A DNA stretch of 64,000 nucleotides from an uncultured Acidobacteriota bacterium (GTDB lineage Bacteria; Acidobacteriota; Thermoanaerobaculia; UBA5066): positions 34,124 to 98,123 of the forward strand of contig CAVZPE010000008.1 in NCBI GenBank assembly GCA_963776915.1, read 5' to 3'. Position 1 is the stretch's first letter; every line of letters starts with the position of its first letter. This document shows, piece by piece, positions 16,088-18,450 of this stretch. The notes beneath the pieces were generated by a model, which saw nothing but the letters and a program-made list of their open reading frames with translations, ran no database searches and had not been told where the DNA came from. The translations under genes and the position numbers were made by a program.

Positions 16088-16125
16088 GAGCCCCCTCACG
16101 GGGGCTCTTTCCCTTTTTGGGCGTC
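16088..16125 (+). terminator. rho-independent terminator after pilin genes
   Basis: AAGAGCCCCC-TCAC-GGGGGCTCTT followed by TCCCTTTTT. Confidence 0.7.
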
Positions 16126-18450
16126 TGCCCCGCGCCTAGAATCCCGGCAGTGAAGCGCGGCGCGACGACAGGCCGGACGGCGCTCCTCGGCGGCGCCCTC
16201 GGGCTCGCCCTCGCGGCGGCGCTCCTCGGGCCGGGAGCCCTCGCCGGCCTCGTCCCGGCGCGCGGCGACCTGGCCGACTTCTTCTGGCCCATGAAGGCGT
16301 ACACGGCGGCGCGGTGGGCGGCCGGGCAGATCGCCCTCTGGAATCCGCTCTCGGGATGCGGAGAGCCCTGGCTGGCCCAGCTCCAGACGGGCGTCCTCTA
16401 CCCGGGCGACCTTCCGTTCCTCCTCCGCGGCGCGGCGGGACCGCTCCTCGCGATCGCGCTGCACGTCGCGATCGCGGCGGCCGGGATGGCCGCGTGGCTC
16501 TCGTCTCTCGGCACGTCGCGCGCGGGCGCGCTCGCGGGGGCGGCGACGTGGGCGGGCGGCGGCGCGTTCCTCTCCCTCGTCCCCGTCTACAACAACTTCG
16601 CGACGGCCGCGTACCTGCCCTGGCTCTTTCTCGGGGCGCGCCGCACGGTGCGCGGCGCGTCTCCGGCGGGCTTCGCGCTCGCGGTCGCGCTCGCGTTCCT
16701 CGGGGGCGAGCCCGCGCTCGCGGCGGTCGGTTGCGTCGCCGCCGGTCTCGTCGCCTTCGCGACGCGCGCAGAGGAGCCGTCCGGCGCCGGGCCTCGCCCG
16801 GCGCGGGCCGCCCTGCGGGTGGCGGGAGGCCTCGCGCTCGGCCTCTCTCTCGCGGCGGCGACGCTCGCGCCGTTCCTCGCCCTCGTGGCGTCGACGGGGC
16901 GCCTCACGGGCGTGACGAAGGCCGAGGCGGTCGCGCGGCCCGTCGGACGCGCGGACCTCGCGGACCTCGTCGTCCCGCCCGCCCCCGACGCGACGCGCCG
17001 CGCCGGAGAGGACCGGGGCGGCTACCTCGTGACGCTCGCGCTCGCGCCGCTGCCGTTCATTCTCGCGGGGGCCGCGGGCGCGGGGTTCGCGTCGCGCCCG
17101 CGCCTCCTCGCGGCGCTCTTCGCTCTCGCCGCCGTCGGCGTCGTCCTCGCCCTCGGATCCCGGGGCGGGCTCGTCCCCCTCCTGTGGGACGCGGGACTCG
17201 CCCGGGGCGTCCGCTTTCCGGCGCGCTGGTTCGTCCTCGCGCACTTCGCTCTCGCGGCGGCCGCCGGCGCCGGCCTCGACGGCTGGCGCGACGGACATCT
17301 CCTCGCGTGGCCGGCGAGCGCCGGGCACGAGGCCGAGCCGCCCCGGAAAGGGGCGCTCCTCGTCTCGGCGGCGCTCGCGGCCTCCGCCCTCGCCGTGCTC
17401 GCCTCCTTCGCCGTCTCCGAGCGCCGCGTGCCGGGTGTCGCCGCGTGGGCCGCCTTCGCCGCGGCGGCCGCCGGCGTCGCGCTCCTCGGGCTCGCGCGCG
17501 GGAGCCGGGCGCTCTCCCGCGGGCGGTGCGGCGCGCTTCTCGTCCTCTGCGTCGGCCTCCCGCTCCCGCTCGGCGCGCGCGACGTCTTCGCGGGCGCGTC
17601 CGCCGACGATCTCGCGCGGACCCCGCCGGTCGTCGCCGGTCTGGCGCCGGGGTCCGCGGGCCGCGTCTTCCCGGTCGTCTCGGACGGCGCGCTGCTCCGG
17701 AGGTGGCTCGGCGGGGCGGCGTGGACCGCGGAAACGCCGCTCCGCGCCCACGAGGCCCTCGCGGGGTACGGGTCGCTTTCCGCCGGAATCGCCTCGGCGG
17801 CCTCCCCGTCGCCGATCGGCAACCCGCGGCGGACGCGGCTCCTCGGGGCGGCGCTCTCCGGCGGGGACGCGGGCGCGCTCCTCGGCCTCGTGGACGTGAG
17901 GCACGTCGTGACGCCGTTCCCGGCCGCGCTCGAGGGAACGCGGCTCGAGCGGCGCGCCGGGGACGTGCTGCTCTACGCCCTCGATCGCCCGCTCGGGCGC
18001 GTGTTCTTCCCCCGGGAAGCCGTGGTCGTCGACGACGACGCCGCGTTCGGCGCGCTCGCCGGCCGCGGCTTCGATCCGGAGGTGCGCGCTCTCGTCGCCC
18101 CGGGCGCCGGCGCGCTTCCGCCGCCGCGCGCGGGCAAGGGGTTCGCGGTCGCCCGGGTGGCGCGCGACGAGCCCGAGTCGTTCGCCGTGGAGACGGCGAC
18201 GTCGGAGGCGTCGCTGCTCGTCGTGACCCGCTCGTGGGACGCCGGCTGGGAGGCGCGGCTCGACGGGGCGAGCGTCCCGATCCGGCGGTGCGACCTCGCC
18301 CTCATGGCGGTGGCCGTCCCGGCCGGCGAGCACCGGCTGGATCTCGCGTACCGGCCCGCGGCCTGGCGCGCCGGCGTCGCGGTCTCGGGCGTCTCGCTCC
18401 TCGTCCTCGTCGGTCTCGTCCTCGCGGGCCGGAAGGAGGACGGCACGTGA
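16117..18450 (+). CDS. YfhO-like polytopic membrane protein (GT-C-type glycosyltransferase candidate)
   Basis: About 770 aa with many TM helices and a YfhO-like N-terminal region (WNPLSGCGEPWLAQLQTGVLYP...). The start may be the GTG at 16150. Confidence 0.5.
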   Translation: MGVCPAPRIPAVKRGATTGRTALLGGALGLALAAALLGPGALAGLVPARGDLADFFWPMKAYTAARWAAGQIALWNPLSGCGEPWLAQLQTGVLYPGDLPFLLRGAAGPLLAIALHVAIAAAGMAAWLSSLGTSRAGALAGAATWAGGGAFLSLVPVYNNFATAAYLPWLFLGARRTVRGASPAGFALAVALAFLGGEPALAAVGCVAAGLVAFATRAEEPSGAGPRPARAALRVAGGLALGLSLAAATLAPFLALVASTGRLTGVTKAEAVARPVGRADLADLVVPPAPDATRRAGEDRGGYLVTLALAPLPFILAGAAGAGFASRPRLLAALFALAAVGVVLALGSRGGLVPLLWDAGLARGVRFPARWFVLAHFALAAAAGAGLDGWRDGHLLAWPASAGHEAEPPRKGALLVSAALAASALAVLASFAVSERRVPGVAAWAAFAAAAAGVALLGLARGSRALSRGRCGALLVLCVGLPLPLGARDVFAGASADDLARTPPVVAGLAPGSAGRVFPVVSDGALLRRWLGGAAWTAETPLRAHEALAGYGSLSAGIASAASPSPIGNPRRTRLLGAALSGGDAGALLGLVDVRHVVTPFPAALEGTRLERRAGDVLLYALDRPLGRVFFPREAVVVDDDAAFGALAGRGFDPEVRALVAPGAGALPPPRAGKGFAVARVARDEPESFAVETATSEASLLVVTRSWDAGWEARLDGASVPIRRCDLALMAVAVPAGEHRLDLAYRPAAWRAGVAVSGVSLLVLVGLVLAGRKEDGT

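Follow-up and report, generated by a model that had tools for sequence, protein, structure and literature searches.

A YfhO-like GT-C membrane protein encoded between pilin genes and pilD in an uncultured acidobacterium is a candidate pilin glycosyltransferase

A 64,000-nucleotide (nt) stretch of DNA from an uncultured Acidobacteriota bacterium (contig CAVZPE010000008.1, positions 34,124 to 98,123; the whole stretch is called the window below) carries a gene for a YfhO-like GT-C glycosyltransferase, here termed yfhO (16150..18450, + strand, 766 amino acids (aa); assigned by Pfam, orthologue alignment, and a structure model), which lies between two upstream pilin genes (14887–15390 and 15563–16066) and the directly following prepilin peptidase gene pilD (18447–19622). 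The protein belongs to the YfhO family, has a modelled GT-C fold, and keeps conserved residues of catalytic type, and it is encoded in an operon whose synteny is conserved among relatives and recurs elsewhere. By analogy with characterised enzymes, we put the probability that the protein is active and serves as a pilin accessory glycosyltransferase at roughly 0.55. The initial annotation of this DNA had located the gene between the pilins and pilD, as found here, and had named its product a candidate pilin glycosyltransferase, a proposal whose fold, family, loop-1 Asp, and pilus synteny are borne out and which holds as a hypothesis.

The gene occupies an uninterrupted open reading frame (ORF) on the + strand (16117..18450), the longest form of which starts at TTG 16117 and comprises 777 aa. 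The window has a G+C content of ~72% and consequently contains long chance ORFs in all frames. The GC at codon positions 1, 2, and 3 (0.81/0.62/0.94) and the homologues of the product (268 at E ≤ 1e-5 among the candidates scored, with a precomputed PF09586 match for all those listed) identify this ORF as a genuine coding gene and rule out a 777-aa high-GC artefact. An antisense ORF of 745 aa (16096..18333) was rejected as a gene, its Arg/Glu/Gly-rich translation marking a base-composition artefact. An identical 766-aa protein is present in the database (P0001), and a profile built from 18 orthologues matches 67,068 representative clusters (50% identity clusters). P0001 and the close orthologues start at the position equal to GTG 16150, 34 nt beyond the terminator that follows the second pilin gene, and GTG 16150 rather than TTG 16117 is the likely start, which gives the length of 766 aa. 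TTG 16117 is merely the first possible start and abuts the T-run of that terminator; the initial annotation had let the gene begin inside the terminator because the longest ORF was taken, a remark that the start shared with the orthologues overturns.

Pfam matched the protein to YfhO (PF09586) with 36.8 bits, above the gathering score of 28.5, and residues 692–757 of the 777-aa ORF aligned with model positions 769–835. This direct match is confined to the C-terminal ~70 residues. Family members of ~800 aa are aligned over their full length by the orthologue profile, whose hhalign comparison with P0153, which itself matches positions 7–598 of the Pfam YfhO model, gave a probability of 99.9% (E 7.6e-33, 688 columns). 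As judged from these alignments, the protein is homologous to the YfhO family across the membrane domain, beyond the C-terminal tail. The sole named NCBIfam matches, to the PgfM1 and PgfM2 equivalogs (NF047589 and NF047590), are weak, with 23.7 and 28.3 bits vs. cut-offs of 1400 and 1500, and cover only the C-terminal ~70 residues. The AlphaFold model, built on the 18 orthologues (mean predicted local distance difference test score, pLDDT, 84; predicted template modelling score, pTM, 0.90), comprises a first helix, a long loop with short helices (~32–95), many further helices, a beta-rich domain (~480–735), and a final helix (737–759). Model helices and hydropathy together give at least ten hydrophobic segments, followed by a soluble 260-aa stretch (481–740) before the last membrane helix. 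The YfhO of Bacillus subtilis has 13 helices and a 389-aa loop preceding the last helix (PMC5836110); the protein studied here has the same architecture of many helices, a large loop, and a last helix, with the membrane side of the loop presumed. In a Foldseek search of the PDB, every match at E ≤ 0.001 was the GT-C enzyme AftD (E 1e-6), and the next matches were ArnT, STT3A, EmbB, PglB, and Pmt4; a search with the profile among PDB sequences gave no relative of solved structure. According to the model, the protein is a YfhO-family member with a GT-C fold, and the initial description of a YfhO-like GT-C membrane protein is confirmed by the Pfam score, the hhalign probability, and top Foldseek matches that are all GT-C enzymes.

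Loop 1 is the most conserved part of the protein (P36, R38, G39, D40, L41, D43, F44, F45, W46, P47, M48, K49, W64, N65, P66, G71, E72, P73, and W74), and an invariant RGDLADFFWPMK...LWNPLSGCGEPWLAQLQ motif sits in this first outward loop (residues ~32–95). GT-C enzymes are characterised by an acidic motif in their first outward loop. D40 is invariant in the 18 orthologues and kept in 97% of 115 diverse homologues, an alignment that includes 109 diverse family representatives, and W64, P157, H105, R251, R355, and R359 are kept in 96–100% of the same set. D43 together with D40 makes a DxxD motif in the pilus-linked clade. Because the N-terminus is positively charged, with three Arg/Lys and zero acidic residues, loop 1 should face the periplasm according to the positive-inside rule. 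A DxxD at the loop-1 position is essential for GtlB (D35/D38, functionally tested), as is a DDX motif for TfpW (10.1101/2020.04.19.049825). By analogy, His105, Arg251, Arg355, and Arg359 are candidates for lipid-phosphate-binding residues, and the protein is most likely an active GT-C glycosyltransferase, predicted by homology to use a polyprenyl-phosphate sugar. The initial annotation had suggested looking for a GT-C fold by fold or HMM search and for a catalytic Asp/Glu in the first periplasmic loop, and had regarded a lack of GT-C catalytic features as counter-evidence; the fold was found through the AftD, ArnT, STT3A, EmbB, PglB, and Pmt4 matches, D40 occupies the loop, and because this acidic motif is present, such features are not lacking.

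The gene order around yfhO is sigma-54 promoter, pilin, sigma-54 promoter, pilin, strong terminator, yfhO, pilD, and histidine kinase. Pilin 1 (14887..15390, + strand, 167 aa, leader MRGKARANAAKG followed by FTLIELL) matches Pfam N_methyl and T2SSG and the NCBIfam prepilin N-terminal domain and is ~90% identical to its orthologue in L001, a relative of 85% identity. Pilin 2 (15563..16066, + strand, leader MKKRNQKG followed by FTLIELL; N_methyl and T2SSG) has its first 31 mature residues identical among the orthologues displayed and is disrupted near 15924 and 15975. A pattern search placed a sigma-54-type promoter motif before each of them, GGCACGGATCTTGA at 14844..14857 (+) before pilin 1 and GGCACGGCTCTTGA at 15521..15534 (+) before pilin 2, and the pattern GGCACGNNTCTTGA has three matches in the window vs. 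0.22 expected. The motif GGCACG-N2-TCTTGA stands 29–30 nt before the start codon of each pilin gene, occurs upstream of pilin genes in 32 related loci, and reads as a putative sigma-54 −24/−12 promoter. A copy with one mismatch (22681–22694, − strand) is also located ~43 nt upstream of a rubrerythrin-like ORF (22027–22638, − strand).

The intrinsic terminator after pilin 2 (16084..16116, + strand) consists of a 12-bp stem with eight G-C pairs (16084–16111), a loop of 4, and T5; its folding energy is −33.8 kcal/mol (z −5.2), and none of 200 shuffles folded equally well. Between the terminator and yfhO, no sigma-70-like promoter was found, TAGAAT at 16137–16142 having no convincing −35 element. 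The stop of yfhO and the GTG start of pilD overlap in a GTGA, nine bases downstream of a Shine-Dalgarno-like GGAAGGAGG (18430..18438, + strand, read from the sequence) within the yfhO 3′ end. PilD (18447..19622, + strand, 391 aa; Pfam A24_N_bact 2.3e-33 and Peptidase_A24 2.7e-17) is 86% identical to its L001 orthologue, and the stop of its gene overlaps in another GTGA with the GTG start of a sensor histidine kinase gene (19619..21394, + strand), whose product is 91% identical to an L001 orthologue with PAS_4, HisKA, and HATPase_c domains. Because of these stop/start overlaps, yfhO, pilD, and the kinase gene are predicted to be one translationally coupled unit behind the pilin terminator. Pilin-accessory cassettes typically have a terminator between the pilin gene and the accessory gene, and this terminator is believed to keep the dose of the latter low (PMC11841053); the same order is seen here, with the pilin 2 stop at 16066, the terminator behind it, and the yfhO start at 16150. 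As a separate observation, the 391-aa PilD is ~100–130 residues longer than the PilD of L063, L070, and L071 (262–269 aa), and the Arg/Ala-rich extra stretch after its peptidase domain (~229–391) has no Pfam match.

The neighborhood was followed in a synteny scan of 56 loci, with one genome per species, all labelled Thermoanaerobaculia, Holophagales, or Acidobacteriota except for one probably misbinned metagenome-assembled genome. pilD directly follows yfhO in every one of the 38 loci with enough downstream sequence, and one or two pilin genes lie ≤1.6 kb upstream of yfhO in 40 of 46 loci. The linkage also extends to distant homologues. P0135 (L063) is ~32% identical to the protein by multiple sequence alignment (MSA), with BLASTP aligning only a 124-residue N-terminal stretch (52%, E 1e-28), and its gene stands in the order pilin-yfhO-pilD with a 4-nt overlap, followed by pilT, a HEAT-ATPase gene, and minor pilin genes. 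P0179 (L069), also ~32% identical and with named relatives in Vicinamibacteria/Acidobacteria, is encoded by one of three tandem YfhO-like genes between pilD and a block of ABC transporter, pilin, and PilR genes. L070 and L071 each have two or three YfhO-like genes between pilS-pilR-pilA-ABC and pilD, along with several methyltransferase genes and a gene with a GT2 domain, which is joined to a methyltransferase in L070 and to an epimerase and a methyltransferase in L071. GT2 plus GT-C is the canonical pairing of CsbB/YfhO-type systems, and from their gene content the stretches between the pilA/ABC-transporter genes and pilD in L069, L070, and L071 look like glycosylation islands. In L066 (54% GC), two YfhO-like, two Wzy_C+TPR, methyltransferase, and epimerase genes flank two pilins of a different sequence type. 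The surroundings of nine distant homologues were examined, a sample that is biased to the nearest relatives and shows recurrence, not frequency; a clear position within or next to a pilus cluster was seen for five of them, L068 has an adjacent PMT_2 GT-C gene and only a PilB-like ATPase gene ~3 kb away, and the L065 contig is too short to judge linkage. Overall, the pilin association recurs in at least three gene arrangements with visibly different pilin sequence types, and the link of yfhO to pilus genes is very probably more than chance and is stronger than the initial annotation could know.

Among the known pilin-modifying enzymes, the closest functional analogue is TfpW of group IV Pseudomonas aeruginosa, a GT-C pilin D-arabinofuranosyltransferase, while the closest sequence relatives are YfhO proteins. 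The tfpW gene is located right downstream of the pilin gene behind a terminator, as is yfhO, and GT-C TfpW glycosylates pilin Thr64/Thr66 (10.1101/2020.04.19.049825), which are just after the N-terminal helix; the pilins in the window keep conserved Ser/Thr in the same region. The two enzymes differ in that TfpW is an Emb-like protein of 646 aa that carries a TPR domain at its C-terminus as well as a DDX motif, whereas the protein studied here is of the YfhO family, with a beta-rich domain plus a last helix, a DxxD motif, and no TPR match in the Pfam scan. As TfpW is described, it is also set apart from the present protein by the operon with pilD and by the lack of D-arabinofuranose pathway genes nearby. 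TfpO (PilO) and PglL are likewise inner-membrane enzymes that modify pilins, and tfpO occupies the same place downstream of pilA behind a terminator, but they are Wzy_C proteins resembling O-antigen ligases and transfer preassembled oligosaccharides. The Pfam scan returned no Wzy_C match for the YfhO-like protein, which rules it out as a Wzy_C-type O-oligosaccharyltransferase. The initial annotation had cited PglL/PilO as GT-C pilin enzymes; they do glycosylate pilin, but as Wzy_C-type O-oligosaccharyltransferases they are not relatives of the protein. TfpO/PglL-like Wzy_C+TPR proteins accompany the YfhO-like genes next to the pilins in L066.

In the YfhO family itself, the CsbB/GtcA/YfhO systems of Firmicutes modify teichoic acids with N-acetylglucosamine, and csbB and yfhO are co-transcribed in Bacillus, whereas no csbB-like GT2 gene adjoins yfhO here and the direct match to the Firmicute-trained Pfam model is limited to the final ~70 residues. 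The acidobacterial host is a diderm, and diderm bacteria are not known to make teichoic acids. A precedent for a protein acceptor is provided by PgtC2 of Streptococcus pyogenes and S. pneumoniae and PgfM1 of S. mutans, which are GT-C enzymes with a YfhO domain that carry out extracytoplasmic Ser/Thr glycosylation with a lipid-linked sugar made by GtrB/PgfS. These enzymes act on long, disordered, Ser/Thr-rich tails rather than on pilins, and their genes have no link to pilus genes. By the features tested, the protein belongs to the YfhO family and the GT-C superfamily and not to the TfpW, TfpO/PglL, or PgfM1/PgfM2 groups.

Based on these comparisons, the following mechanism may be proposed. A cytoplasmic GT2, encoded outside the window, would load a sugar onto undecaprenyl phosphate, and the lipid-linked sugar would be flipped to the periplasmic leaflet and bound by the YfhO-like enzyme, probably via His105, Arg251, Arg355, and Arg359. 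Asp40 of the first periplasmic loop would then be used for sugar transfer to Ser/Thr hydroxyls of the pilins. Since pilins are membrane-anchored with their globular part in the periplasm, they are natural substrates for a membrane transferase, and they may be modified while the N-terminal helix still anchors them in the inner membrane, with the beta-rich periplasmic domain (~480–735) recognising the acceptor. Membrane-anchored proteins are known acceptors in the YfhO family, their Ser/Thr-rich segments being O-glycosylated by PgtC2 and PgfM1 (10.1101/2024.05.05.592596). In the pilins, modification would most likely take place directly behind the N-terminal helix, where Ser/Thr is conserved: in the otherwise variable LPSGLSLPTAT stretch (mature residues ~64–78), three to four positions hold Ser/Thr in both paralogues; a single-sequence pilin model, with a pLDDT of 50 and only the N-terminal helix confident, was used solely to place the helix end. 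PilD, translated from the same coupled message, would process the same prepilin pool at the cytoplasmic face, and, as in the pilA-tfpO/tfpW cassettes, the level of yfhO expression would presumably depend on how much transcription passes the strong pilin terminator.

The condition of the pilus structural genes bears on this proposal. In comparison with L001, pilin 2 has gained a C near 15924 and is 5 nt short near 15975, and it is read in three frames, namely an N-terminal 123 aa, then 17 aa, and then the conserved C-terminus ...NFNDDIIFVDGQFVQYPAGAQR; its orthologues are intact at ~160–170 aa (170 aa in L001). Other frame changes are located in the gene of a HEAT-repeat plus T2SSE ATPase (26623..29145, − strand; 840 aa in relatives), which is broken by two insertions near 27735 and 28218, in a minor pilin gene (near 30386 and 30587), and in a conserved 411-aa gene without known family (near 31906). 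The last two belong to a block on the + strand (29370..37813) that contains minor pilin genes, the 411-aa gene, and genes for a PilX_N protein and PilY1, several of them frameshifted; PilY1 matches a distant orthologue in alternating frames over 34875–37813. The seven indels relative to L001 are insertions of 1–2 nt outside homopolymers, except for the second event in pilin 2, the 5-nt deficit. No frame changes were found in ~14 kb of other genes compared with L001, including yfhO, pilD, the kinase gene, and pilT, and the probability that all seven events fall by chance in the 5.6 kb of affected genes is ~1.6e-4, for a grouping chosen after the fact. The frame changes may be caused by pseudogene decay, by consensus error at a strain-variable locus, or by sequencing error.

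Several observations weigh against pilin glycosylation by this enzyme. No GT2/GtrB-like or GtrA-like gene was detected in the window ORFs scanned, with ~33.6–34.9 kb and 41.4–44.5 kb lying outside the Pfam scan. The donor, the acceptor, the site, and the physical coupling to PilD are what we infer, as is the glycosylation of pilin itself. Ser/Thr-rich loops are frequent in pilins and constitute unspecific evidence, and the YfhO family is very large (67,068 clusters). While several pilus structural genes in the window are frameshifted, yfhO and pilD are intact, which, if the frameshifts are real, hints at a role beyond this pilus. Six exceptional species have an rRNA operon instead of pilin genes before yfhO, with yfhO, pilD, the kinase gene, and pilT still together. 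Because the rRNA operon supplants the pilins there, the invariant partner of yfhO is PilD, and pilins are its usual yet not obligatory neighbor. Most of the synteny comes from one class and so partly reflects shared ancestry, and at least one close-scoring homologue, in L064, has no pilus link. In addition to the window, no GT2 or GtrA-type partner genes were found within ±10 kb in the relative L001.

The main rival explanation is that the protein is an active GT-C enzyme with a non-pilin acceptor, such as an exopolysaccharide, lipopolysaccharide/lipid A, a peptidoglycan-linked polymer, or a pilus-machine protein such as PilY1, and that it sits with pilD only by co-regulation with pilus production. 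We regard this as a real but minority possibility. It fits the characterised YfhO proteins of Bacillus, Staphylococcus, and Listeria, which modify teichoic acids and not proteins, the presence of the lipid A modifier ArnT among the structural matches, the six species without neighboring pilins in which yfhO, pilD, and the kinase gene remain together, and the intact yfhO amid frameshifted pilus structural genes; the GT2, epimerase, and methyltransferase genes of L070 and L071 would fit a polysaccharide pathway equally well. However, the order of pilin, terminator, and accessory gene and the coupling to the pilin-processing enzyme are typical of pilin modifiers, the pilin association is found in at least three arrangements with different pilin types, and no polysaccharide export or polymerase genes adjoin yfhO in the window. 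A role as a broad-spectrum periplasmic protein O-glycosyltransferase like PgtC2/PgfM1, acting on Ser/Thr-rich segments of many membrane-anchored proteins with pilins as at most one substrate class, seems rather unlikely. The YfhO-family protein glycosyltransferases studied so far do act on several unrelated membrane-associated proteins, and PgfM1/PgfM2 are the only named NCBIfam matches, though weak and C-terminal only; at 24–28 bits vs. cut-offs of 1400–1500, the protein is not their equivalent, and there would be no obvious reason for its coupling to pilD in 38/38 species loci or its place inside pilA-pilD clusters elsewhere.

A non-catalytic role in pilus biogenesis, in which the protein would, e.g., chaperone or scaffold prepilins or PilD in the membrane, is improbable. 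TfpY-type accessory proteins, which are encoded at the same position and are not enzymes, promote pilus assembly without modifying pilin (PMC11841053), and the tight coupling of yfhO to pilD would suit such a function, but all family-wide conserved residues are kept, the loop-1 Asp and the basic residues included, as purifying selection on catalysis predicts. That the adjacency is a historical accident, in which a housekeeping YfhO paralogue came to lie beside pilD without a functional link, is very improbable and already disfavored by the data: most loci do come from one class and YfhO paralogues are numerous, but the stop/start overlaps with pilD and the kinase gene, a gene order kept down to ~32% identity (MSA estimate), and the independent arrangements in other lineages speak against it.

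Further features of the window and of the relatives were recorded. A 511-aa ATP-grasp protein (13270–14805, − strand) is encoded divergently from pilin 1, and its L001 orthologue (ATP-grasp_IQCH/PGM1_C) has the same position. Relative to L001, where pilT directly follows the kinase gene, the window has an extra ~4 kb (21400–25450) that encodes a DUF2231 membrane protein, the rubrerythrin-like ORF, a second histidine kinase, and an ORF whose translation reads like a sigma-54-dependent response regulator. The PilT-like retraction ATPase gene (25499..26623, − strand, 375 aa) is intact, and its product is 97.6% identical to an L001 T2SSE protein. The HEAT-T2SSE (PilB/PilT-type) ATPase gene (16371–18893 in L001) adjoins pilT in all inspected pilus clusters of this group, and its domain combination is unusual for a pilus motor ATPase. 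The region of 34.9–37.8 kb was assigned to PilY1 by tblastn, and Rfam identified no RNA family in the window. In the subgroup with YfhO proteins of ~790 aa, an rRNA operon (16S-tRNA-tRNA-23S-5S) ends 93 nt before yfhO (L059 4735–9908, also L061). L070 (7623–20270), L071 (4659–15509), and L069 (3561–12583) each contain two to four YfhO-like genes and genes for membrane proteins of 700–790 aa without convincing family match, and L066 (1689–14995) encodes two nearly identical pilins of 147–148 aa and a 436-aa protein whose translation resembles WD40-type repeats. P0139, P0140, P0156, P0166, P0242, and P0074 are among the notable family members, some of which have 1500–3051 aa with four matched stretches and are apparent tandem YfhO fusions. 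A database protein of 836 aa has YfhO together with the PilD N-terminal domain and is possibly a fused or mis-called gene.

Pilin glycosylation shapes phage resistance, immune recognition, and pilus behavior. To our knowledge, the enzymes known so far to carry it out belong to two families, TfpW-type GT-C and PglL/TfpO Wzy_C-type, from few Proteobacteria. In literature searches on YfhO with pilin, type IV pili, and PF09586, no paper linking the YfhO family to pili was found; the YfhO functions in the literature searched all come from Gram-positive bacteria, and the searchable literature yielded no YfhO acceptor in diderm bacteria. What would be new here is that the candidate pilin accessory glycosyltransferase comes from another GT-C family than TfpW and that its gene is incorporated into the pilD operon, an arrangement that is both unusual and conserved; by these analogies the candidate appears well supported, and the idea would probably not surprise a specialist. 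More tentatively, and on balance doubtful, type IV pilins of environmental diderms (Acidobacteriota and others) may widely be glycosylated by YfhO GT-C enzymes, which would make up a class of pilin glycosyltransferases not recognised so far; in Thermoanaerobaculia the enzyme would be made stoichiometrically with PilD, so that removal of the leader peptide at the cytoplasmic face and glycosylation at the periplasmic face would be one coupled step of prepilin maturation.

For some members of the YfhO family, pilin can be put forward as a concrete acceptor that is open to experimental test. This hypothesis comes from the conserved, coupled pilin-yfhO-pilD operon, an arrangement found in about 40 related acidobacterial species, and likewise from the islands of a second acidobacterial group, in which YfhO, GT2, and sugar-modifying genes are placed between pilA and pilD. 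The finding is also a hint that pilins may be modified by a third family of enzymes, in abundant phyla of soil and sediment on which little experimental work exists.

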